From NCBI RefSeq assembly GCF_044324875.1, contig NZ_CP172185.1: a DNA stretch of 64,000 nt; one strand, given 5' to 3'. Source of the DNA: Escherichia coli. GTDB taxonomy: Bacteria > Pseudomonadota > Gammaproteobacteria > Enterobacterales > Enterobacteriaceae. How positions within the stretch are numbered: the first letter of the stretch is position 1; the number at the start of each line of letters is the position of its first letter. The notes beneath the pieces are model-generated. The model was not told where the DNA came from, searched no databases, and worked only from the letters and a program-made list of their open reading frames with translations. Below, piece after piece: positions 3,984-27,238 of the stretch. Made by a program: the position numbers and the translations under genes.

Positions 3984-4652
3984 ATGAATACGAAAGAACA
4001 ATTCAACCAGCTTTATGATGATATCAGTAATCAGATACGCCAGACTGTGAATGATATTTCGCAACTGAGTGTTGAGAATGAAAAAGGACAGATACATCTC
4101 AATAAAATACGGGAACAACTACAGGCATTACATGATAACTTCAATCATAAGCTGGATTACCTGAAGGAGCATGCCGAATGGGACAGGTTTACTGTCGCTT
4201 TTTTTGGCGAAACGAATGCTGGTAAAAGTACCATAATTGAGTCGTTGAGAATATTATTTGATGAAACAACCCGTCGTGAATTCCTGAATAATAATCAAAA
4301 AGATTTACAAAAGTCAGAACAGGAGTTAAGTAAAAACCTGGAACAGTTAAGCCATGATTTGGAATGCGTTTATGGTGATATTGTCGATAAATTCCGTGAC
4401 ATTAGTTTGTCTGTCATGCAGTTACGACAAATTGTTGCTGATGAGAGCGCATTACGTATAAAAATGGAAGAAGATGAAAAGAATGCCCGTCTCCTTACAG
4501 AACAGAATGAAAGTCAGGCCCGGCTGAATATTTTACAGCAACAGACGAATACCAAAGCACGTTTCAGATTATTTGTGACGGCAATTATCAGCATGATTGT
4601 GGGAGGATGTGGATTTCTGTTGCTGAATCAAGTATTCGGGAGCTTACAATGA
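3984..4652 (+). CDS. leoC: LeoC-like: P-loop (G1) fragment of a split dynamin-like protein with C-terminal TM segment
   Basis: GETNAGKST Walker A/G1, coiled-coil-like middle, hydrophobic C-terminus; stop TGA overlaps the next ATG (ATGA at 4649-4652). Confidence 0.55.
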   Translation: MNTKEQFNQLYDDISNQIRQTVNDISQLSVENEKGQIHLNKIREQLQALHDNFNHKLDYLKEHAEWDRFTVAFFGETNAGKSTIIESLRILFDETTRREFLNNNQKDLQKSEQELSKNLEQLSHDLECVYGDIVDKFRDISLSVMQLRQIVADESALRIKMEEDEKNARLLTEQNESQARLNILQQQTNTKARFRLFVTAIISMIVGGCGFLLLNQVFGSLQ

Positions 4653-6373
4653 GTAATATTCCATGTTCTGCAGATAATAATCCGGAAAAATATCCGGAAA
4701 CTGTCTGTCAGGAATATAATTGCACAGGCGGCGCGGATGATATCAGGTTCTTTTTTAAAAAAAGTCTGGAGCGTACTGTTAGTTCCGTTATCCGGACCGA
4801 AACATTAAGAAATACTGCAAAACGTGTGGATGGCCTGATCATCGGAACCGGTGAGGCTGATTTTACCAAAGACAACACACACTATAATTTACGCATTGAC
4901 GATAAAGATTTTCAGTTGATTGATGTTCCGGGTATTGAAGGTAATGAAACCTGCTACACACATCTTGTTAAAAAAGCCATTGCGCAGGCTCATCTGGTGG
5001 TTTACGTCAACGGTACCAATAAAAAGCCTGAAACAAGCACCGCAAAGAAGATCAAATCTTATCTGGAATATGGCACTCAGGTTTATCCGTTGATCAATGT
5101 ACGCGGTTATTCTGATGACTATGAATTTGAGGAAGATCGTGTCGCTCTCGAACAACAGGGTAGGGGCGGTGAGGCTTTATGCCAGACTGTTGGGGTGCTC
5201 GCTTCCGTATTAGGGGCGGATGTGTTGCTGAATGGGAACTGTGTACAGGGATTACTGGCATTTTCAGCGTTGGCTTATGACGACAATACACACAGAACAA
5301 CCATTCATCCGTTACGTGATCGAAATCTGGCGGTATATCAACGTGGTTTTTTTAATGTATTTCCTTCCCGTCAGGAAATGCTGACATTCAGCCAGATTGA
5401 TGCCGTCGCTCAGACAATTAAAAATAAGGTCGCAACGTTCCGTGAGGATATTATCGAAAGTAATAAATATAAAGTTCGTGAGACTCTGGATCAATACTTA
5501 CAGGTACTTGAAGAGCAATTAAACAGCCATCACTGCTTTTTACAAAAGACAATACCGGAATTTGAAAAATGCCGGACTGCGTTCAAAAATGCGACTGGTG
5601 AATTTGAACGCCGTATTGCGAACAGTCGTCGCAATCGCTGGAATAGCCTTTTTAATGACCTAGGGAATGCCTGTGATGGTATTGTCGAACATAATTTTGG
5701 TGACAGCAGTGCTATTTCCACACTGATACGTAATGAGTATGAAAAGCGCCGTAAAATGATGGAACAAATGATGCAGGAGGATACTGAAGAGAGTGTAAAG
5801 GTATTACAAGAGCAAACTCTTCAGGCGGTAAATCGTTTGCTGGAAGATATTCACAATGTGGAACTTCAACACCCCCTCAGTTTTGCTAACAGCCGCAGCA
5901 TCGAGTTTAGTGGAGAGATGGTACCTGGTTACGAGCTGGGGATGGCTGATTTCAGTTCAATGGTTTTAAAAATTGGCAGCTATGCAATGTCAGGCAGTGC
6001 AATTGGCAGCATCTTTCCCGTTATTGGTACGCTTGTTGGCTCTGCGGTTGGTGCGTTGCTTGGCATAATAATGACTATTGCGGGTATTTTTACCAGTAAA
6101 GCGTCAAAAATCCGCAAAGCACAAGGAAAAATACGCAACAAGCTGGAGGAAGTGCGGGATAAATCTCTCTGCAGCATACCTGATGAAACCCGCCTCCTGG
6201 TTGCAGCTATTGAAAAAGAACTTGAGTGTGGCCTGCTGCAAAAACTCAACGATATGCAGGTGGATCTGCAACAGCCTGTTGCCATATTCGAAACTCAAAT
6301 CAGTCGAATCACAACATTAAAGAAACAATTGGAGAAAATGCCTTATGGAACAATTCAAACAGTTCAGTATTGA
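4649..6373 (+). CDS. leoB: LeoB-like: remainder of the split dynamin-like protein
   Basis: Translationally coupled to the upstream gene; DVPGI (G3-like) motif; long helical regions and hydrophobic stretch near C-terminus. Confidence 0.55.
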   Translation: MSNIPCSADNNPEKYPETVCQEYNCTGGADDIRFFFKKSLERTVSSVIRTETLRNTAKRVDGLIIGTGEADFTKDNTHYNLRIDDKDFQLIDVPGIEGNETCYTHLVKKAIAQAHLVVYVNGTNKKPETSTAKKIKSYLEYGTQVYPLINVRGYSDDYEFEEDRVALEQQGRGGEALCQTVGVLASVLGADVLLNGNCVQGLLAFSALAYDDNTHRTTIHPLRDRNLAVYQRGFFNVFPSRQEMLTFSQIDAVAQTIKNKVATFREDIIESNKYKVRETLDQYLQVLEEQLNSHHCFLQKTIPEFEKCRTAFKNATGEFERRIANSRRNRWNSLFNDLGNACDGIVEHNFGDSSAISTLIRNEYEKRRKMMEQMMQEDTEESVKVLQEQTLQAVNRLLEDIHNVELQHPLSFANSRSIEFSGEMVPGYELGMADFSSMVLKIGSYAMSGSAIGSIFPVIGTLVGSAVGALLGIIMTIAGIFTSKASKIRKAQGKIRNKLEEVRDKSLCSIPDETRLLVAAIEKELECGLLQKLNDMQVDLQQPVAIFETQISRITTLKKQLEKMPYGTIQTVQY

Positions 6374-8078
6374 AAAACTGGCTGCGATTAATTCGCTATC
6401 ACAGTTGCGCGGAATGTTAGAAATGTTGGGAGATTTGGGGATAGACATCAGTGACGATTTACAAAAAATTACTTATGCAATTAATTCCATCGAATCTGAT
6501 GTTCTGCGTATTGCTTTGTTGGGGGCGTTTTCTGATGGCAAAACCAGCGTTATCGCTGCATGGATGGGTAAGATAATGGATGATATGAATATTTCCATGG
6601 ATGAGTCCTCTGATCGGTTGAGTATTTACAAACCGGAAGGTCTGCCAGACCAGTGTGAAATTGTTGATACACCCGGGCTGTTTGGTGATAAAGAGCGTGA
6701 GGTGGACGGGAAACAGGTGATGTATGAAGACCTGACCAAACGCTATATATCTGAAGCTCATCTGATTTTATACGTGGTTGATGCCACTAACCCGCTAAAG
6801 GAGAGCCACAACGACATCGTAAAATGGGTATTGCGCGATTTGAATAAACTCTCTTCAACCATTTTTGTTATCAATAAAATGGATGAAGTGACTGATCTGA
6901 CAGAGCAGGCGCTGTTTGACGAGCAGGCAGCAATTAAAAAGGCGAATCTTAAAGGTAAATTGCAGCGTGCAGCTGCTCTTACCGCTCAGGAGTGTGATCA
7001 GCTAAATATCGTCTGCATTGCTTCAAACCCAAACGGTCGTGGCTTAACGTACTGGTTTGATAAACCAGAACATTATGAAAGTCGTTCGCGCATTAACGAT
7101 CTTAAAAATGCTGCCACCGACATACTGAAAACTAATGTGCCAGAGGTATTGTTAGCGAAAACAGGTATGGACGTGGTGAAAGATATTGTCATTCAGCGTG
7201 CCACCCAGGCAAGCAGACAGTTCGATGAACTGAATCTGTTTGTTGAGAAGAATGACGAGGACATGTGTCGTTTTCAGAACGACATTAAGCAAAGTCGCAT
7301 TGAGGTTAAACGGCTGGCCGGAGAGTTATTTGAAGAGCTGAACCTGATGGAAAAAAAGCTGATGAGTCAACTGCGTTCACTCGATCTGGACGATATCCGC
7401 CCGTTTATGGACGATGAGCTGGGATATACAGAAGATGGGGTTGGCTTTAAGCTTCATCTGCGCATTGAGCAGTCAGTTCATCGTTTTTTCGAACAGTCGA
7501 AAGCGGTCTCGCAACGCTTATCTGATGATATCACTTGTCAGTTGAGCTCCAGCGAGAGCTTTCTAAGTGGCTTAGGCGAAGGCGCATTTCGTTCTTTAGG
7601 CGGGACCTTTAAGGGAGTGTCGAAAATTAGTCCGGCGACGCTCAAAACGACTATTTTGACCGCACGCGATACGATTGGCAAACTAACGGGATATACCTAT
7701 AAATTTAAACCCTGGGAGGCCACGAAACTGGCCGGAAGCATTTCCAAATGGGCTGGTCCTGTGGGTGCAGTGTTTACGATTGGTTCTGATCTATGGGATG
7801 CCTATAAAGCACACGAGCGGGAGCAGGAGCTGAAAAAAGTAAAAGAATCGCTGGCGAAAATCATTAAAGAGCAGTTTGAATATATCTATGACGTACTGAG
7901 TTCTGATGAGAAAATATTCGCCTTTTTTGCACCGCAGATCCAAAAAATGGAGCAGGTTGTTACTGAGCTGGCAGAGAAAAGCCAGGCTATTCGCGACAAC
8001 CGGCAGAAACTGAGCATTATTCAGACGCAGCTTGCACAACTAATGGTTCCAGCCACAGAAAACCATACTGTCAGATAG
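6345..8078 (+). CDS. leoA: Bacterial dynamin-like GTPase, LeoA-like
   Basis: G1 GAFSDGKTS, G3 DTPGL, G4 NKMD in order; 577 aa; overlaps the end of the upstream gene (operon). Confidence 0.75.
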   Translation: MEQFKQFSIEKLAAINSLSQLRGMLEMLGDLGIDISDDLQKITYAINSIESDVLRIALLGAFSDGKTSVIAAWMGKIMDDMNISMDESSDRLSIYKPEGLPDQCEIVDTPGLFGDKEREVDGKQVMYEDLTKRYISEAHLILYVVDATNPLKESHNDIVKWVLRDLNKLSSTIFVINKMDEVTDLTEQALFDEQAAIKKANLKGKLQRAAALTAQECDQLNIVCIASNPNGRGLTYWFDKPEHYESRSRINDLKNAATDILKTNVPEVLLAKTGMDVVKDIVIQRATQASRQFDELNLFVEKNDEDMCRFQNDIKQSRIEVKRLAGELFEELNLMEKKLMSQLRSLDLDDIRPFMDDELGYTEDGVGFKLHLRIEQSVHRFFEQSKAVSQRLSDDITCQLSSSESFLSGLGEGAFRSLGGTFKGVSKISPATLKTTILTARDTIGKLTGYTYKFKPWEATKLAGSISKWAGPVGAVFTIGSDLWDAYKAHEREQELKKVKESLAKIIKEQFEYIYDVLSSDEKIFAFFAPQIQKMEQVVTELAEKSQAIRDNRQKLSIIQTQLAQLMVPATENHTVR

Positions 8079-8190
8079 ATGCATAATGCAGTTCCGTACA
8101 TCCGAATTTGAATAACGAATACTCTTTCAGAACTATCTGGATTGAAAGGATGCCTTCTGCTAATCATCGGAAATATGGCTTACTTAAGAC

Positions 8191-8400
8191 ATGAGGGATA
8201 AATCAGTGAGATTATTGTTAAAGGGACTGACTGGAATGGTTATGGCCTGGTTGGTGATCTATTTTGGTATGAAATTATTTTTTCTCACAGATCAGATTCA
8301 TCCGGCATTAAGAACTCTTGTCATGCTGGGGATGTTATTTATGTTGATAATGATTCCCTGTGTAATATGTGGTTCTTTTTTACGAAAGAGGCAGAAATGA
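8191..8400 (+). CDS. Small membrane protein (two predicted TM helices), hypothetical
   Basis: 69-aa ORF, hydrophobic segments, basic C-terminus. Confidence 0.3.
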   Translation: MRDKSVRLLLKGLTGMVMAWLVIYFGMKLFFLTDQIHPALRTLVMLGMLFMLIMIPCVICGSFLRKRQK

Positions 8401-8485
8401 TAATTCGTCCTGTAATAATGACGAATCAACAAGAAAAATTGATGCATAAGAATGATACATATACTTATCTGTATTAAAGGATGAT

Positions 8486-8971
8486 TTGATGAACATAAAA
8501 AATATTTTTCTGTTTCTTTTTTTTAGTTTATTAGCAGGTAATGCCTTTGCTGCTGCAACAGTGATGGGGTATTGTGAACTGAAGAATGGAAAAACGCTTT
8601 CTGTATGGGCTGGTGATAATGGAAGTTATAATTATACTTTATATGGCAAAAGTGGGACGACAGAGTTACAGCTAAAAGAAGGATTGTTTGGCGTCAGAGC
8701 TTTTCACTATTATCATTCCATACGTGATGGAGTGGGAGCGTTCAAGTACCTCCGGTTTAATAAAGGTGAATATGATTATGTTGTCATGTCGTATGAGGAT
8801 GGTCGTTCCCCCTATTTTGATGGTGTGATAGTATTCAGAAATGGAAACCGAATTGCTCGTCTCGAATGTGCCCATCCATTTACAGGAGCATTTTCTGTTG
8901 AAGAACTGGATGCAGGACATAATCAGGACAGTGAAGATATGGCTGAATATATTATGAGTAATTTTACCTGA
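8486..8971 (+). CDS. Secreted protein of unknown function
   Basis: N-terminal signal peptide (FLFLFFSLLAGNAFAAA); no recognised motif. Confidence 0.5.
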   Translation: MMNIKNIFLFLFFSLLAGNAFAAATVMGYCELKNGKTLSVWAGDNGSYNYTLYGKSGTTELQLKEGLFGVRAFHYYHSIRDGVGAFKYLRFNKGEYDYVVMSYEDGRSPYFDGVIVFRNGNRIARLECAHPFTGAFSVEELDAGHNQDSEDMAEYIMSNFT

Positions 8972-9105
8972 ATATAATAAATTTAAATATATCAGAATAT
9001 TTTCTGACGATATTGCAATGAAAACTGAATATAATTTTCAGTGGATGAGAAAAACGGACTGATGAAATTATGGTTCTCAGTCCGTTTCATCATAAACTTT
9101 ATCAA

Positions 9106-9870
9106 TCAATCCAGTGTGATTTCTGCAGCCAGTTCTTCTGAGTCTGCATTTGCTATTTTGCTACGTAAGACTGCAACATAAATTACGGCAGGTATTGTAA
9201 CCCTGTAGGCTGTACCACCAACATCCACAAGAGTCCAGATTGCGGTAATCGCCCATCCTACAGGACCAGTTAATACAGCCATTGTTCTGGTCAAAATAGT
9301 ATTACCGGCAAAACTTAATCCTCTTCCGATTAAAGCTTTTAAAATAGCATTAGCCATAATTAATGTAAGCTGATACGATTTGAATCCACCTGCTTTAAAT
9401 ATGAACTGGAATGTTGAAACAAGTGCTTTCGGTGTAAGCCCATCGAGTTTTTTTACACCAATCTCTCGCGCAAATTCTTTCAGTTCATCATCACTCATTT
9501 TTTCAAATGCATCATTGAGTATTTTCAACATGAGGCATTGTTCTATATTTTCAATTGTGCTATTTTTGTTATAGTTAACTTTTAGTTTATCACAAACATC
9601 GGTAAGCACCTCTCTGTATTTAACACCTCGTCCTCCTCTGAGAAGTGTCGCAAAAGTATTACCGCCAAAGCATTGAATTTCAGCTGCAATTTCTCGCCAG
9701 TACTTACTGTGCTGAGGATTATATCTTTTGTAATATTCATTTCCAGAAAGTTCTTCAGTAAAGCGTTTCTTTCCGTCCTTATCATATATTAAGCAATCAA
9801 CCAAATCATTCAGTTCTGCATCAGAACATTTTGATAAAAACTCAAGGTCTTCATCATAACGATATGCCAT
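9106..9870 (-). CDS. YaaW/UPF0174-family protein
   Basis: C-terminal ...GPVGWAITAIWTLVDVGGTAYRVTIPAVIYVAVLR... recalled as characteristic of the YaaW family. Confidence 0.55.
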   Translation of the reverse strand: MAYRYDEDLEFLSKCSDAELNDLVDCLIYDKDGKKRFTEELSGNEYYKRYNPQHSKYWREIAAEIQCFGGNTFATLLRGGRGVKYREVLTDVCDKLKVNYNKNSTIENIEQCLMLKILNDAFEKMSDDELKEFAREIGVKKLDGLTPKALVSTFQFIFKAGGFKSYQLTLIMANAILKALIGRGLSFAGNTILTRTMAVLTGPVGWAITAIWTLVDVGGTAYRVTIPAVIYVAVLRSKIANADSEELAAEITLD

Positions 9871-11051
9871 AAAATTTCCTATTTAAAGGTCAGGTGTTAA
9901 TGCTGACATGCGATTTTGAGACGTATAAATAGTCCTTGTCTATTATATTCTTATCAATTTTATTTTCAATGTTTTTATCTTCTTTTTATACACTCTTAAA
10001 AAGAACCGATTTTATTACCTGAGCATGTAATGTAAAAGTATATGTGTGATGATTAAAGTTTTTATCCTTATTTTTCCTGTAAGGACGAGCTTTCCGTGGT
10101 TGCTGTTCTCGTATGTATGCGGGGTATTACTTTCACTAATGGTTAAAATTCTTTCCTTCCGGTTAAAGCATTCATGTGTTTGTATTTTTCTTTGCTATTT
10201 GTTTTTTAGTACAGAATTTAATTAGTGTGGTTGTGATTTTTGTTGATATCACCACGCGCATTTTATATGAAATAGCCACATAACTTTCAACAAAATATAA
10301 AAATAAAATTATGCTATAGTAAACAACAGATTTTTATGTTTATGAAAGATGACCACTTTTTTAATTTGACTGAATTTTTTAAGATGCTTTTGAGTTGTGA
10401 AATATATTTTTCTTTATTGCTTTTTGGAATGTTGACGGGGCGTAGTTATGATTAATATAACAGAAGTTTCAGGAACGCTTTTTTCTTTTAAATGCCTGCG
10501 CATGACTTGTTCAATAATGTGTTTTCATCATATTTTTTTGGCATCAATACAATAATTAAAGATATAACGTTAAAATATTATTTATTGGCTTTTCCTGATG
10601 GAGTAAAAACAAATGTAACAACTAACTGCATGATAAATAAGTAGAATGGTCAGTATCATGTATATTATTTGGGTATAAGTGGTATTTGTAAAGAATCAGT
10701 TGTGTTACTCCGGAATATATCTCTTTGAGAGAGCAGAAGTGAAACAGATATTCTCTTGAAAGTATTGCATTATCGTTACCGTTTTTATATCAGAGGCTGA
10801 AAATACGTATTTTTATAAACAGGGTGGAGGCATTTTTGTGTTATGTATGGATTTTCAAACCGGGTGAATCATCCAGACAGGTAATAATATAATAAGAAAT
10901 GTTGCTGCCAGGCTAAAACAGGAACGTGTACTTCTGTGAAAATGTTGATGCGAAGCTACCATTATTTGGGGTAGGGTATCTTCGCTCATCAGATGATATT
11001 GAATATGGTCGCCTGAAATCAGAAATTAAAAAATACAAATGGTAGTTAACT

Positions 11052-11078
11052 CCCCACCAACCGCTGTGGTTGGTGGGG
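11052..11078 (-). terminator. Perfect 11-bp-stem hairpin immediately downstream of int, followed by a G8 tract
   Basis: ccccaccaacc-gctgt-ggttggtgggg, then gggggggg; T-run only 15 nt further on the minus strand, so not a canonical intrinsic terminator. Confidence 0.3.
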
Positions 11079-11087
11079 GGGGATGGC

Positions 11088-12281
11088 TTATTTCGTTTGT
11101 ACGTTTTTCTCCATAAGTGAATCAATGTAATCAGCGTACCACTGCATCATTTCACGACGTCCATCGAGATACAGGGCATGATTATAGGTACCCCTGATGG
11201 AGTTTTTATCCACATGCGCTAACTGCATTTCAATCCAGGCAGAATTAAAGCCCTGTTCGTGCAGAATTGTGCTCATTGTGTGACGAAAACCATGGCCGGT
11301 TGCTCTGCCATCGTAACCGATGCGTTTTAGTACCATATTGATGCTGGCTTCACTCATCGGTTTGTTAACATCGCAACGTCCGGGGAATATAAGGCGATAC
11401 TGCCCGGTAAAACGATGCAATTCCTGCAGCAGTGAAATGGCCTGGCGTGACAGAGGAACAATATGATGCCTGCGCATTTTCATTCGCTCTTCAGGGATAT
11501 GCCAGAGTGCGTTGTCAGAATCAATTTCTGACCATTCGGCCAGCCGCAATTCAATCGTTCTGAGTCCGGTCAGCATCAGCAGGCTCGTCGCCATACGGGT
11601 GACAGGACTGCCATGATAGTCAGCGAGCTTCCGGAGAAAAACAGGAAGTTCATCCGCTCTCAGATGGGGAAAATGTGCGGTTTTTGGTGCCGCCAGCGTA
11701 CTGGTCAGTTCTGATGCAGGATTGACAGTGGCACGTCCTGTGGCAATGGCATAACGGAAAATCTGATTGCAGTATTGACGGACCTTGCGTAATTTTTCCA
11801 GAGAGCCACGTTTTTCAATACGACGCAAAATCTCCAGCATTTCCAGCGGGAGGATATCAGTCACGCTCCGGTTGCTCAGATACGGGAAAACGTCTTTATC
11901 CAGCGCTTCCAGTACGCTTCTGGCGTAACTGTCAGACCATGATAAAGATTTATGATGATGCCATTCCATTGCGAGAGCATGAAAGGTGTTGGTGACAGAG
12001 ATTTTCTGAGAGAGTTTTTCCCTTCGCTTCTTTTCACCGGGATCTCCACCCTCGGATATAATTTTTCGTGCATCGTCGCGTCTGGTTCTGGCTTCAGCAA
12101 GGGAGACGTCAGGATAGACGCCGAGGGACAGTTTTTTCTCCTTTCCTGCTGTTCTGTACTTAAGGCGCCAGTAGCGTGCTCCCGTGGTTTTTACCAGCAG
12201 ATATAAACCACGTTCATCAGAAAGTTTATAATCTTTGTCTTTAGGTCTTGCCGTTTCGACCTGTCTGGCTGTAAGTGCCAT
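11088..12281 (-). CDS. int: P4-type tyrosine integrase
   Basis: MALTARQVETARPKDKDYKLSDERGLYLLV...RYWRLKYR...KLSLGVYP N-terminal domain typical of P4/CP4-57 IntA integrases; RBS-supported ATG at 12281; adjacent to tRNA-derived att. Confidence 0.9.
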   Translation of the reverse strand: MALTARQVETARPKDKDYKLSDERGLYLLVKTTGARYWRLKYRTAGKEKKLSLGVYPDVSLAEARTRRDDARKIISEGGDPGEKKRREKLSQKISVTNTFHALAMEWHHHKSLSWSDSYARSVLEALDKDVFPYLSNRSVTDILPLEMLEILRRIEKRGSLEKLRKVRQYCNQIFRYAIATGRATVNPASELTSTLAAPKTAHFPHLRADELPVFLRKLADYHGSPVTRMATSLLMLTGLRTIELRLAEWSEIDSDNALWHIPEERMKMRRHHIVPLSRQAISLLQELHRFTGQYRLIFPGRCDVNKPMSEASINMVLKRIGYDGRATGHGFRHTMSTILHEQGFNSAWIEMQLAHVDKNSIRGTYNHALYLDGRREMMQWYADYIDSLMEKNVQTK

Positions 12282-12457
12282 ATGGGGGCCCCTTAAACTG
12301 ACCGAACACAATGAGCCCCCAAATGTGCCCCCATTTAATGCTTGATTCAGGGGGTGTTCAATAGAATTCGGTGGAGTTCAAAATGTCCGGAACGATTATA
12401 AATCAGTGATTATACATGAATTTCGTGGAGTGCGGGGGATGTGTGTAGAAGTGAAGG

Positions 12458-12507
12458 TGGTGCCCTGACTCGGAATCGAACCAAGGAAACGGGGATTTTC
12501 AATCCCC
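12458..12507 (-). other. att core: 50-nt copy of the 3' end of tRNA-Phe (no D-arm or 5' acceptor strand), not a full tRNA gene
   Basis: Minus-strand read GGGGATTGAAAATCCCCGTTTCCTTGGTTCGATTCCGAGTCAGGGCACCA matches the anticodon arm to CCA end of E. coli tRNA-Phe (recalled) with 2 mismatches; upstream sequence does not fold as a tRNA. Confidence 0.75.
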
Positions 12508-12558
12508 GTGCCATAATTGGCTGTGTCAGTTGGTTACACACCATTGAGGTGTGTACTA

Positions 12559-13437
12559 ATGAAAATACTGCCCGTTGTCTCCACAAAAGGTGGCGAAGGT
12601 AAATCAACACAATCCGCAAACCTGGCTGGTTTTCTCGCCGATGCAGGTATCCGTACCCTGCTGATTGACGGAGATCATGCTCAGCCCACGGCAAGCAACA
12701 TCTTTCCGCTGACATATGAAGCGTCAGCCGGTCTTTTTGAGTTGCTGATGCGCACGGCTGACCTCAGTCATCCCGATAACATCATTTCCCGCACGGCTAT
12801 CGACGGACTCGATCTGATAGTCTCCAATGACCCTCATGAGCAGTTAAAAACTGCGATGCTTCACGCCCCGGATGGTCGTCTGCGCCTCCGGAATGTCCTG
12901 CAGCATCCGCTTTTTCTGAACAACTACGATGTCATTGTAGTTGATTCTCAGGGAGCACGTTCTGTCATGCTCGAAATGATTGTGCTGTCGGCCACTGATT
13001 CGGTTGTCGGGATGGTCAATCCGGTACTCCCTGATGTGCGCGAGTTTATTCGGGGCACTGTCAATGTTATGGAGAACCTGCTGCCTTACCGGGAGCTGGG
13101 GATACCCCTGCCGAAAGTACGCACGCTGGTTAACTGCATGGATTATACGGCACTGGCCAGGAAGACGCTGGATGAGCTGGCCGGAATTATTCAGACCGGT
13201 CGTTACAGCAGACAGTTACCTGAAGGTGCGGTTTCCCTTCTTTCCACACAGATTTACGACCTGAATATTTACAAGCAGGGGCATGCGGCTGGTCAACCCG
13301 TACATCGTCTCGAAAAAGAATCCACACGTCGCAGTGATTCCGCGCTTGTCACGATGCACAGCCTGGCCTGTGAACTCTTTCCTGAGTGGAAACAGGCGTT
13401 TGACGGGCTGCTGGCGAACGGGGGAATACGTCAGTGA
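12559..13437 (+). CDS. parA: ParA/Soj-family partition ATPase of the ICE
   Basis: Deviant Walker A VVSTKGGEGKST; first gene after att, as in pKLC102/PAPI-1-type elements. Confidence 0.85.
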   Translation: MKILPVVSTKGGEGKSTQSANLAGFLADAGIRTLLIDGDHAQPTASNIFPLTYEASAGLFELLMRTADLSHPDNIISRTAIDGLDLIVSNDPHEQLKTAMLHAPDGRLRLRNVLQHPLFLNNYDVIVVDSQGARSVMLEMIVLSATDSVVGMVNPVLPDVREFIRGTVNVMENLLPYRELGIPLPKVRTLVNCMDYTALARKTLDELAGIIQTGRYSRQLPEGAVSLLSTQIYDLNIYKQGHAAGQPVHRLEKESTRRSDSALVTMHSLACELFPEWKQAFDGLLANGGIRQ

Positions 13438-23483: not shown

Positions 23484-23808
23484 TCTATGGCGCTACTGGC
23501 ACCATAGTACAAAAAATAAGCGATGGTGCCACTGGCACCATAGTACAAAAAATGAGCGATGGTGCCACTGGCACCACGGTATAAAAAATGAGCGATGGTG
23601 CCACTGGCACCACGGTATAAAAAATGAGCGATGGTGACGCTGGCACCATAGTACAAAAAATAAGCGATGGTGCCACTGGCACCACGGTACAAAAAATAAG
23701 CGATGGTGCCACTGGCACCATAGTACAAAAAATGAGCGATGGTGCCACTGGCACCATAGTACAAAAAATGAGCGATGGTGCCACTGGCACCATAGTATAA
23801 AAACGAAC
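23484..23808. repeat. Iteron array: 9 tandem copies of a 36-bp unit (GCGATGGTGCCACTGGCACCATAGTACAAAAAATGA)
   Basis: Unit starts at 23520, 23556, 23592, 23628, 23664, 23700, 23736, 23772 (exact 36-bp period) plus a partial first copy; only minor variants (cacGgtaTaa, gtgaCGctgg). Confidence 0.9.
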
Positions 23809-26924: not shown

Positions 26925-27238
26925 CTTGTCGCTCCGGCGACCACCAATGTTCCATAGTGGCCTGTGAGGAACGCCTTCGGGTGGCCCATGTCGCTTCAGC
27001 GACCACCAATGTTCCATGTGGCCTGTGAGGAACGCCTTCGGGTGGCCCACGTCGCTCCGGCGACCACCAATGCTTCATCTGACCTGTGAGGAGCGCCTTC
27101 GGGTGGTCAGTTTTACACCTCCTGAGCCTGAAAGGAGCTGTGCGTACTGAAGGGATATATTCCCGGAAGTACGGGCAAATCTGCACACCTTTGAGAGCAG
27201 ATGTCACTGCGGTTTTCCGTGATGATGAAGGCTTTTTT
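26925..27238 (+). repeat. Structured repeat element, copy 1 (3 tandem ~60-bp subunits plus ~130-bp conserved tail ending in a T-run)
   Basis: Subunits GTCGCTCCGGCGACCACCAATGTTCCAT(a)GTGGCCTGTGAGGAACGCCTTCGGGTGGCCCA(t/c); tail ...TTTTACACCTCCTGAGCCTGAAAGGAGCTG...GATGATGAAGGCTTTTTTT; near-identical copies at 60942 and 63735. Confidence 0.85.

Follow-up and report, generated by a model that had tools for sequence, protein, structure and literature searches.

The gene jukA belongs to the Juk anti-jumbo-phage immune family; in Escherichia it has been reported to be paired with Xre regulators, and JukA alone to be sufficient for immunity (bioRxiv 10.1101/2022.09.17.508391). AT-rich DNA that was acquired horizontally is bound by H-NS, which suppresses spurious promoters there (PMC3923964, PMC7229825, PMC8894471). 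Here we analysed the DNA between a jukA homolog and a P4-like integrase gene (int) in a 64-kb window of Escherichia coli (the whole stretch studied, 64,000 nucleotides of contig NZ_CP172185.1). Like the xre-jukA operons of the Juk family, this locus has a full-length JukA homolog, which adjoins the tract; unlike them, it lacks an intact partner gene and has 1.2 kb of non-coding DNA instead, and its part in defence is predicted from homology. The JukA homolog, at first called "YaaW-like", stands alone next to a defence module of the dynamin type, LeoABC, and its missing Xre partner may have decayed. Taken as a whole, the tract is probably nothing out of the ordinary: an intergenic region within a tRNA-Phe genomic island, made up of several parts and not a single element. 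The AT-rich DNA seems to be mostly neutral spacer, the hairpin looks like the element that commonly closes integrase genes of this family, and the polymorphism of the G-run has no visible target. The tract is of little weight in itself, and the analysis chiefly guards it against over-reading.

The tract (9871-11087; 1217 bp) is bounded by the ATG of the DUF3944 gene (9870, minus) and the stop codon of the integrase (11088-11090, minus). Its GC content is 31.7% (68.3% AT) compared with 50.5% for the 64-kb window, and equally AT-rich 1217-bp windows make up 1.0% of all such windows in the 64 kb. Stop-free stretches reach 64 codons at most, compared with 70.6 +/- 15 for the longest in shuffles of the tract. 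Because the shuffled tract gives stop-free stretches of like length, the base composition predicts the absence of ORFs exactly, and the gene-free, AT-rich tract of 1.2 kb proposed in the initial annotation is borne out (68% AT, with ORFs at chance level). The ten longest stop-free segments of the tract gave no significant match with Pfam or PADLOC, and ARAGORN found no tRNA in the tract. Tandem repeats are absent from the tract, and so, apart from the hairpin, are direct or inverted repeats of any note; no second copy of it was found within the 64-kb window, and searches of plasmid and phage records with the tract gave no match. The 39-aa ORF at 10926-11045 is ruled out as a gene, for it is frameshifted in four related lineages, in one of them with a 4-nt insertion. 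Comparison of near-identical copies shows that three small ORFs of the tract are also struck by homopolymer indels. In sister islands a TPR gene comes after the module; tblastn gave no sign of a relic of this gene in the tract. The features of the locus are collected in Table 1.

Table 1. Features of the tract and its two flanking genes, with positions in the window
Feature	Position	Strand	Basis
DUF3944 / JukA (formerly YaaW) homolog, 254 aa	9106..9870	-	PADLOC JukA E 7e-69; Pfam DUF3944 + Ubiq_cyt_C_chap
Likely jukA promoter and 5' UTR	9871..9969	-	-35 TTGAAA 9969-9964, 16-nt spacer, -10 TATAAT 9947-9942
Candidate decayed 3' end of xre-type HTH gene	9884..10015	-	tblastn of Xre residues 109-152
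Octamer site	10016..10028		Alignment; L107 sequence end
AT-rich spacer specific to leoABC/jukA cargo block	about 10030..10831		blastn limits and identity to L110
Module common to a small family of E. coli islands, 78-85% identity	10832..11087	-	blastn boundaries
Sole clearly constrained block: hairpin, U-rich tail and ~35 nt beyond	10991..11087	-	Identity to L110 and L003
U-rich tail, UUUGUAUUUUUU in int sense	11028..11039	-	Alignment; conserved in all lineages
Perfect 11-bp GC-rich hairpin, 5-nt loop	11052..11078	-	Folding, lineage comparison and related integrases
G8 homopolymer (C8 in int sense)	11075..11082		Overlaps the end of the hairpin 3' arm by its first four G's
P4-like tyrosine integrase, 397 aa	11088..12281	-	Pfam Arm-DNA-bind_3, Phage_int_M, Phage_integrase; annotated in CM2

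At the integrase end of the tract, the arms CCCCACCAACC (11052-11062) and GGTTGGTGGGG (11068-11078) pair without mismatch around the loop GCTGT. The fold has -33.4 kcal/mol (z -4.7) on the + strand and -23.3 kcal/mol (z -3.6) on the - strand, which is the int sense, and none of 200 shuffles folded as stably. The 64 kb contain only one other perfect hairpin of 10 bp or more, and we estimate the chance expectation for a perfect 11-bp hairpin in 1.2 kb at about 0.002. The perfect hairpin that had been noticed at the tract end therefore lies far beyond chance. Its stem begins 9 nt past the int stop and has stayed the same across 6 lineages except for one C to T in lineage L004, after which a U.G pair is retained only in the int-sense RNA. 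The 5-nt loop varies in orientation. Loop inversions ("flip-flop") between perfect inverted repeats are well known in chloroplast non-coding DNA, and here too the same stem carries either ACAGC or its reverse complement GCTGT according to the lineage; unlike the chloroplast cases, this one is bacterial, lies within an island, and is explained by one flip event.

A hairpin of -15 kcal/mol or lower lies within 90 nt of the stop in 64% of 78 integrases that are related to this one and come from other species, while the same criterion is reached in 8% of shuffles and in 17% of the DNA 400 nt further on; the p value of this excess is about 1e-10 to 1e-12. These hairpins are unrelated in sequence and several are followed by T-runs. 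In 80 loci from other species neither this hairpin nor the shared module was found 3' of int, and most of the loci have unrelated hairpins there. Set against the controls, such unrelated hairpins 3' of related integrases suggest that the stem-loop is an int 3'-end or terminator element, and it is best read as putatively of this kind. As in the 3' stem-loops of P4-like (Arm-DNA-bind_3 / DUF4102) integrases, a GC-rich perfect stem lies less than 10 nt from the stop and a U-rich stretch follows.

The stem-loop is stable and GC-rich, and it lies where a transcription unit ends and has counterparts in relatives, as expected of an intrinsic terminator. However, no U-tract begins within ~2 nt of the stem on its 3' side. 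The int-sense RNA continues from the stem with AGUUAACUACCA and then with UUUGUAUUUUUU; because its U-run begins only 12 nt past the stem, the hairpin departs from the textbook form of an intrinsic terminator. Its tail on the + strand is GGGGAUGGCUUAUUU, with no U-run. This distance differs from canonical intrinsic terminators and fails the rule of the terminator scan, which did not call the main hairpin and called only a weaker overlapping 6-bp stem (11059..11040) with the U-rich tail; termination here is a prediction. The suggestion that the hairpin insulates int holds in broad terms, since a family-wide post-stop stem-loop parts int from the co-directional jukA, but not in the sense of a textbook terminator. 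The strong GC-rich stem-loop and its U-rich tail would mark where the int transcript ends, or protect that end, and the stem-loop may restrict read-through into the cargo.

The hairpin belongs to a module shared by islands whose integrases are at other insertion sites. By blastn, the shared segment extends over 10832-11302 for lineages L002, L004 and L005, and over 10997-11302 for L003. Within 10832-11087, only about 10991-11087, which takes in the hairpin and some 60 nt past it, appears to evolve more slowly than neutral, and purifying selection seems clear there alone: the identity of this block to L110, an 82%-identical ortholog, is 0.93-0.95 compared with 0.695 at the adjoining third-codon positions of int, and the identity to L003 is 95% across 10997-11079, with diverging flanks. 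The ~35 conserved nucleotides beyond the U-run exceed the needs of a terminator, which counts against a plain terminator reading. By eye only, a weak promoter-like CTGAYT-17/18-TATCAT is legible in these ~35 nt.

To the left of 10832, no homology to other E. coli islands was found. This remainder of the tract occurs only with the leoABC/jukA cargo, in one of 5426 complete E. coli genomes, in draft assemblies and in one metagenome ortholog. For int, the identity to L110 at third-codon positions is 0.695, and for jukA it is 0.894; in the tract it is 0.85-0.90 adjoining jukA and 0.65-0.75 in the middle (0.65-0.90 for the spacer overall). Indels of 16-48 nt separate the two sequences in the middle of the tract, those at about 10350-10700 being of 16-41 nt. 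These values suggest that the spacer drifts at about the neutral rate, as judged from a single diverged ortholog and a baseline that is unequal between the flanks. The tract length is kept in the ortholog (1217 vs 1250 bp), which might reflect a function or simply a time too short for deletions to arise. Some 0.9 kb of AT-rich DNA would have arrived with the leoABC/jukA defence cargo and then have undergone near-neutral drift.

The last 100 bp of the tract probably serve the now solitary jukA as a sigma-70-type promoter and ribosome-binding site. The sequence TTGAAA-16-TATAAT matches at 11 of 12 positions and is the best promoter-like site of the region; it lies 72 nt upstream of the jukA ATG (9870-9868), which is preceded by a Shine-Dalgarno AGGA (9880-9877) read from the sequence. 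In L110 the site is retained as TTGAAA-16-TATACT; this ortholog has not kept the alternative promoters of the + strand. We take it as the likely jukA promoter. Expression studies of the defence island could start from this predicted promoter (9969-9942) and from the putative int terminator (11028-11078).

Compatible with the composite reading, and a serious possibility although we hold it at somewhat less than an even chance, is the view, the main one in the initial annotation, that the tract serves above all as a platform for H-NS nucleation and silencing, whose filaments repress jukA, spurious promoters and perhaps int. The tract resembles H-NS-silenced intergenic regions of islands (PMC3923964, PMC8894471) in its AT excess, its many A/T tracts, its excess of promoter-like hexamers and its island location. 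Its AT content is far above that of the host genome (50% GC) and falls among the highest 1% in the window; A/T runs of 5 or more number 21 in the tract, where 5.8 are expected from the window average, and there are 14 promoter-like sites compared with 6.8 +/- 2.4 in shuffles. Unlike in silenced regions, the high-affinity motif is absent: the published TCGATAAATT has no match within 2 mismatches in the tract, compared with 48 in the 64-kb window. Nor is the promoter-like excess kept in the 82%-identical ortholog, which has 4 sites against 6.0 +/- 2.4 expected, and the about neutral evolution of the spacer also speaks against a silencing platform. Binding of H-NS to the tract is a prediction, plausible from its composition only.

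More doubtful is that part of the tract is a decayed xre-type HTH gene which was once co-transcribed with jukA, so that the solitary jukA would now run from a promoter inside the relic; some of the AT-rich spacer may then be the remains of the regulator that precedes jukA in its nearest relatives. The nearest non-identical JukA relatives (80-83% aa identity; E. coli SY3626, Leclercia and Cronobacter) all have a 153-aa Xre gene, which ends 13 nt before jukA, and Serratia liquefaciens has a frameshifted xre pseudogene at that position, which tblastn detected at E 1e-48 as a positive control. In both the window and L110, which are non-independent samples, the best tblastn match (Xre residues 109-152; 20.8-24.6 bits) lies directly upstream of jukA, abutting it on the same strand, and exceeds the shuffles (16.2 +/- 2.0), 3% of which reached the score of the window and 0 of 150 that of L110. 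A second weak match (residues 40-62; 10777-10718) follows on this strand in consistent order, but the two matches are 700 nt apart where 140 nt are expected. The HMM of the xre family gave 5.6 bits in L110 (0 of 200 shuffles as high); in the window its score of 0.0 bits falls short of significance (35% of shuffles as high). Besides, nucleotide homology is absent upstream of the jukA ATG, and AT-rich translations, rich in K, N and I, readily yield weak matches. On this evidence we regard the relic as a tentative and rather unlikely explanation.

The initial annotation had also proposed that the tract might hide a small RNA, and this was not upheld. In a scan of 8000-13000 with Rfam 15 there were 0 matches at E <= 1, no 100-nt folding window across the tract clearly stands out except those with the hairpin, and no conserved promoter-plus-terminator pair was found in the tract. 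A gene for a small regulatory RNA in the constrained block or elsewhere in the tract, such as a 3'-UTR-derived sRNA with the hairpin as its end, is improbable. In favour of such an RNA, the ~97 nt of the block (10991-11087) are conserved at 93-95% where adjoining synonymous sites are at ~70%, and a stable hairpin followed by a U-rich stretch resembles the 3' ends of sRNAs. However, compensatory changes are absent among the few diverged sequences compared, and no covariation is possible in the hairpin because its stem is invariant; the loop is flipped among lineages, which leaves no orientation-specific loop sequence; and beyond the hairpin only 1 of ~100 folding windows has z < -2.5, with a pairing register that is shifted in the ortholog. 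This window, 10171-10270 (+), was rejected as a second structured RNA, since z -2.7 is about what chance gives among ~100 windows, and a compensatory change in it was only apparent, being the register shift.

Next to the stem lies the G-run. The initial annotation placed eight G's after the hairpin and directly at the int stop. The G8 itself is real, but its first four G's belong to the stem, so that only four extra G's lie beyond it, and 5 nt (ATGGC) separate the run from the integrase stop; in int sense the run is downstream of the stop. Of 16 near-identical assemblies, 2 have 7 G's at this place, 9 have 8 and 5 have 9. The A-runs at 10540, 10380 and 10189 vary in length among near-identical assemblies as well. 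In related islands the run is broken up (CAC5, C5, CCTC4, TC6), and in all five related lineages (5 of 5) it is interrupted or shorter, with the stem retained. No ORF beyond chance, and no promoter-like site or predicted -35/-10 spacer, spans the run. The slippage site that had been suspected is therefore a mutational fact, as a G7/G8/G9 polymorphism, while nothing indicates a functional switch. The run may be a slippage-prone by-product of the C/G-rich stem base, whose length variation would leave reading frames and predicted promoters untouched.

We consider it very improbable, though conceivable, that the conserved block is more than a terminator, namely a tunable 3'-end element or, alternatively, the source of a 3'-UTR-derived small RNA. 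As a tunable element, the hairpin, 9 nt from the int stop, would lie inside the footprint of the terminating ribosome, and the slippage-prone C7-9 run would set the distance between hairpin and stop; read-through from int to the jukA side would then depend on the translation of int and on the run-length allele.

The G8 as a contingency (phase-variation) switch, in which slippage alters the hairpin geometry or the stop spacing and hence int 3'-end formation or read-through into the cargo, is highly improbable. Like the contingency loci of Neisseria, Haemophilus and Campylobacter, the run consists of 7 or more identical bases and differs in length among close strains; each of its three alleles occurs in at least 2 independent assemblies that are otherwise near-identical, and it overlaps the stem base and begins 5 nt past the stop. 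Unlike those loci, it lies outside ORFs and promoter spacers and is not conserved in relatives, all of which keep the stem with an interrupted run. Since the stem uses four G's only, lengths of 7 to 9 keep it intact; A-runs elsewhere in the tract are just as polymorphic, and homopolymer sequencing error may explain some of the variation.

Least credible of all is that the hairpin acts as DNA, as a cruciform, protein-binding or recombination site, maybe akin to the integrase-target palindromes CTCCCC...GGGGAG of sister islands: the perfect palindrome has a loop inverted among lineages, which is a DNA-level event, and in some lineages its base reads CTCCCC...GGGGAG like the attB-type palindromes at sister-island junctions, but the resemblance is confined to C4/G4, any perfect inverted repeat can undergo loop flips, the cargo-exchange breakpoints at 10832 and 10997 are away from the hairpin, and the same place holds unrelated hairpins in most integrase relatives, which target tRNA genes.

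A further difference from the ortholog is found near jukA, where the octamer site has a single copy in the window and L110 has a tandem repeat of CTCAGATA in about 7 copies.

The tract between jukA and int (9871-11087; 1217 bp) has a GC content of 31.7%, compared with 50.5% for the window; of all 1217-bp windows in the 64 kb, just 1.0% are equally AT-rich. Its longest run without a stop codon in any of the six frames is 64 codons, within the range of tract shuffles (70.6 ± 15), so the lack of ORFs is just what the composition predicts, and the gene-free AT-rich tract of the initial annotation is confirmed. Overall it is an unremarkable intergenic region of composite make-up: a probable 3' element of int, an apparently neutral AT-rich spacer, which may include an xre relic, and a predicted jukA promoter.

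Features in and around the tract (window coordinates unless stated; identities, except in the last row, are to the ortholog L110)
Feature	Position	Strand	Remark
jukA (254-aa gene)	9106-9870	-	start codon bounds tract on left
Predicted sigma-70-like site, best in tract	9969..9942	-	TTGAAA-16-TATAAT, 11/12 positions, 72 nt upstream of jukA ATG
Hairpin block	10991-11087		identity 0.93-0.95
Hairpin, first arm CCCCACCAACC	11052-11062		perfect stem
Hairpin loop GCTGT	11063-11067
Hairpin, second arm GGTTGGTGGGG	11068-11078		perfect stem
G8 run	11075-11082		first four G's belong to stem
int (tyrosine integrase, 397 aa)	11088-12281	-	stop bounds tract on right
tRNA-Phe 3' remnant, about 48 nt	about 12458-12505	-	between int and ICE ParA gene
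Tract next to jukA			identity 0.85-0.90, equal to local neutral level
Tract middle			identity 0.65-0.75; 41-nt and 16-nt indels
jukA third codon positions			identity 0.894
int third codon positions			identity 0.695
Serratia liquefaciens xre pseudogene	L118 about 2550-2990 (CP011303)		three tblastn pieces, different frames, 68-76% identity

The perfect hairpin reported after int is real. Its folding energy is -33.4 kcal/mol for the + strand (z -4.7) and -23.3 kcal/mol for the - strand (z -3.6), and none of 200 shuffles equalled either value. Only one other perfect stem of 10 bp or more exists in the 64 kb (53936-53963; ATAGCGTTTG / loop / CAAACGCTAT), at a GC drop near 54 kb. In six lineages compared, the only change in the 11-bp stem is one C-to-T in the sister E. 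coli island L004, which leaves int-sense RNA with a U.G pair, while + strand RNA would have a C.A mismatch. Read in int sense, the loop is ACAGC in four lineages; in two it is the reverse complement, GCTGT, between the same stem arms. This difference (window vs the sister islands L004 and L005) is a small inversion of the loop within a perfect inverted repeat. Because the loop flips between perfect arms among lineages, its sequence and orientation are immaterial.

To see if a hairpin after the stop is common in this integrase clade, we surveyed the 90 nt after the stop in 78 integrase relatives from other species. Hairpins at or below -15 kcal/mol are found in 64% (28% at or below -20 kcal/mol), while the frequency at -15 kcal/mol is 8% in shuffled sequences and 17% in DNA 400 nt further on (Mann-Whitney p = 3e-12 and 7e-10, respectively). 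Many of them begin no more than 6 nt past the stop, and T-runs come after several. The hairpin sequences of the relatives are unrelated, so the structure is the conserved thing. This family-wide pattern points to an element that forms the 3' end of int transcripts or terminates them, and the window hairpin is probably an int transcript boundary element typical of its family. The earlier proposal that it insulates int is supported to this extent, but the terminator would be non-canonical, since the conserved UUUGUAUUUUUU (int sense) starts 12 nt after the stem. The one call of a terminator scan here is a weaker 6-bp stem that overlaps the hairpin and is followed by the UUUGUAUUUUUU tail; this 6-bp stem also exists in the ortholog. 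Beyond the U-run, about 35 nt are conserved, which the terminator reading does not explain. A weak promoter-like CTGAYT-17/18-TATCAT was seen there by eye, and would face the TPR gene in sister islands.

The G8 run was described as a potential slippage site that follows the hairpin, directly after the integrase stop. Eight G's are present, but only the last four follow the hairpin, and the gap between run and stop is five bases. In 20 loci from 16 assemblies encoding identical integrase or JukA, the run (C's in int sense) has a length of 7 (2 of 16), 8 (9 of 16) or 9 (5 of 16), each allele occurring in at least two independent assemblies; therefore the run does slip, or is polymorphic at the least. 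Four points speak against a function: neither an ORF nor a promoter-like spacer contains the run, the A-runs at 10540, 10380 and 10189 vary as well among the same assemblies, the stem uses only four of the G's, and every related lineage has the run interrupted (CAC5, C5, CCTC4, TC6) with the stem kept. The G-run thus appears to be a mutational hotspot without a target, and with no visible function.

A roughly 82%-identical ortholog across int, tract, jukA, ORF and leoA comes from a metagenome contig adjoining an intact tRNA-Phe (L107, equal to L110 and L111), in which the tract is 1250 bp. Judged from this alignment, clear constraint in the tract is limited to the hairpin block, of which 83 bp are 95% identical in the sister island L003, where both flanks diverge. 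Window and ortholog also differ by a 48-nt indel at about 10016-10028, where the octamer CTCAGATA has one copy in the window and about 7 tandem copies in L110 (L107 end, about 6930-6958); in the ortholog, this expansion splits the second-best promoter-like site (10036..10009).

The two sides of the tract have different relatives. Homology to the sister islands covers 10832-11302 for L002, L004 and L005 and 10997-11302 for L003; the former takes in about 256 bp of tract and the conserved int 3' end, while the remaining int is only about 68% identical to that of the sister islands. There are 17 E. coli genomes matching the int-proximal part only, and the 80 integrase relatives compared from other species all lack this shared module. 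The dolP-yebF-OMP cargo is common to the window and the sister islands (96–98%); the sister islands carry EcsC/TPR genes at the place of leoABC/jukA. The tract left of 10832, with no match in plasmids or phages, is part of the leoABC/jukA block.

The E. coli sister islands sharing the hairpin module (L002, L003, L004, L115, L116) encode a different integrase. Without exception, the junction on their int side reads ...CTCxCCCC-N3-GGGGA|GGATCTATTG..., located between glnH and glnP, in the ulaE 5' end (in both orientations, in different strains), beside ycjD or beside gcvP, and two of these sites have the identical integrase protein. This integrase appears to target short GC-rich palindromes, not a tRNA gene; the palindromes resemble the E. 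coli boxC repeat.

On the jukA side, AGGA lies 6 nt before the ATG, and the best sigma-70-like site, which reads TTGAAA-16-TATACT in the ortholog, is the predicted jukA promoter. The tract contains 14 promoter-like sites (shuffles 6.8 ± 2.4), the ortholog 4 (6.0 ± 2.4), all in int sense, and three of these four coincide with window sites 9969..9942, 10323..10294 and 10911..10884. H-NS binding is plausible from composition and from what is generally known of H-NS (PMC3923964, PMC7229825, PMC8894471), but the tract has no match to the high-affinity motif within 2 mismatches. The suggested hidden small RNA was not borne out: Rfam gave no match for the tract, and among 100-nt fold windows on both strands only those holding the hairpin stand out. 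One candidate, 10171-10270 (+, z -2.7), was rejected, its pairing being out of register in the ortholog.

According to the Juk study, Escherichia jukA is paired with Xre regulators, and JukA alone is sufficient for immunity (bioRxiv 10.1101/2022.09.17.508391). The nearest non-identical JukA proteins (80–83% identity; E. coli SY3626, Leclercia, Cronobacter) all have a 153-aa Xre-type HTH gene 13 nt upstream. In Serratia liquefaciens a frameshifted xre pseudogene is directly upstream of a jukA homolog (tblastn E 1e-48), showing that partner loss recurs in this JukA clade. In the window, Xre residues 109-152 align weakly at 10015-9884, next to jukA and on the strand expected; the matches score 20.8–24.6 bits in window and ortholog (shuffles 16.2 ± 2.0), reached by 3% of shuffles for the window's and 0 of 150 for the ortholog's. 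Residues 40-62 match weakly at 10777-10718; the distance between the two pieces is 700 nt, against an expected 140 nt. The Xre family HMM gives 5.6 bits in the ortholog (0 of 200 shuffles) and 0.0 bits, not above shuffles, in the window. That part of the spacer is decayed xre is a tentative lead, and a rather doubtful one.

The window is 99.5–99.9% identical to E. coli CM2 (chicken isolate) across the regions compared, and the tract (99.8% identical to the CM2 copy) is present in 1 of 5426 complete E. coli genomes. The left island reads int, tract, DUF3944/jukA, 160-aa ORF, leoC, leoB, leoA, then OMP (outer-membrane protein), yebF and dolP paralogs. The "YaaW-like" label was right: the DUF3944 gene matches PADLOC JukA (E 7e-69; intact partner gene absent), formerly named YaaW, which serves as sensor in the Juk anti-jumbo-phage system (bioRxiv 10.1101/2022.09.17.508391). 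As leoC, leoB and leoA (3984-8078) match PADLOC Leo models (E 4e-71 to 5e-280), the cargo is predicted to be anti-phage defence, a dynamin-type Leo module plus a JukA homolog. Between the convergent jukA and 160-aa ORF (8486-8971), an inverted repeat AACGGACTGA...TCAGTCCGTT (about 9050-9095) looks, by eye, like a bidirectional terminator.

ARAGORN found no intact tRNA in the window. Right of the tRNA-Phe remnant, from 12517 onward, a SPI-7/PAPI-type integrative conjugative element (DnaB-PI, ParB, TraD, conjugative ATPase, iha) occupies most of the remaining window; the remnant lies between it and int, and therefore two elements are in tandem at one tRNA-Phe gene. One ORF of the conjugative element, annotated as hypothetical protein in CM2, contains a 36-bp tandem repeat (23487-23803; 8.8 copies, 92% match), whose copy number appears to differ between window and CM2 from the BLAST pattern. 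A repeat of ~250 bp has three copies in and beyond this element (26989-27238, 60941-61187, 63740-63989; 94–98% identical via CM2).
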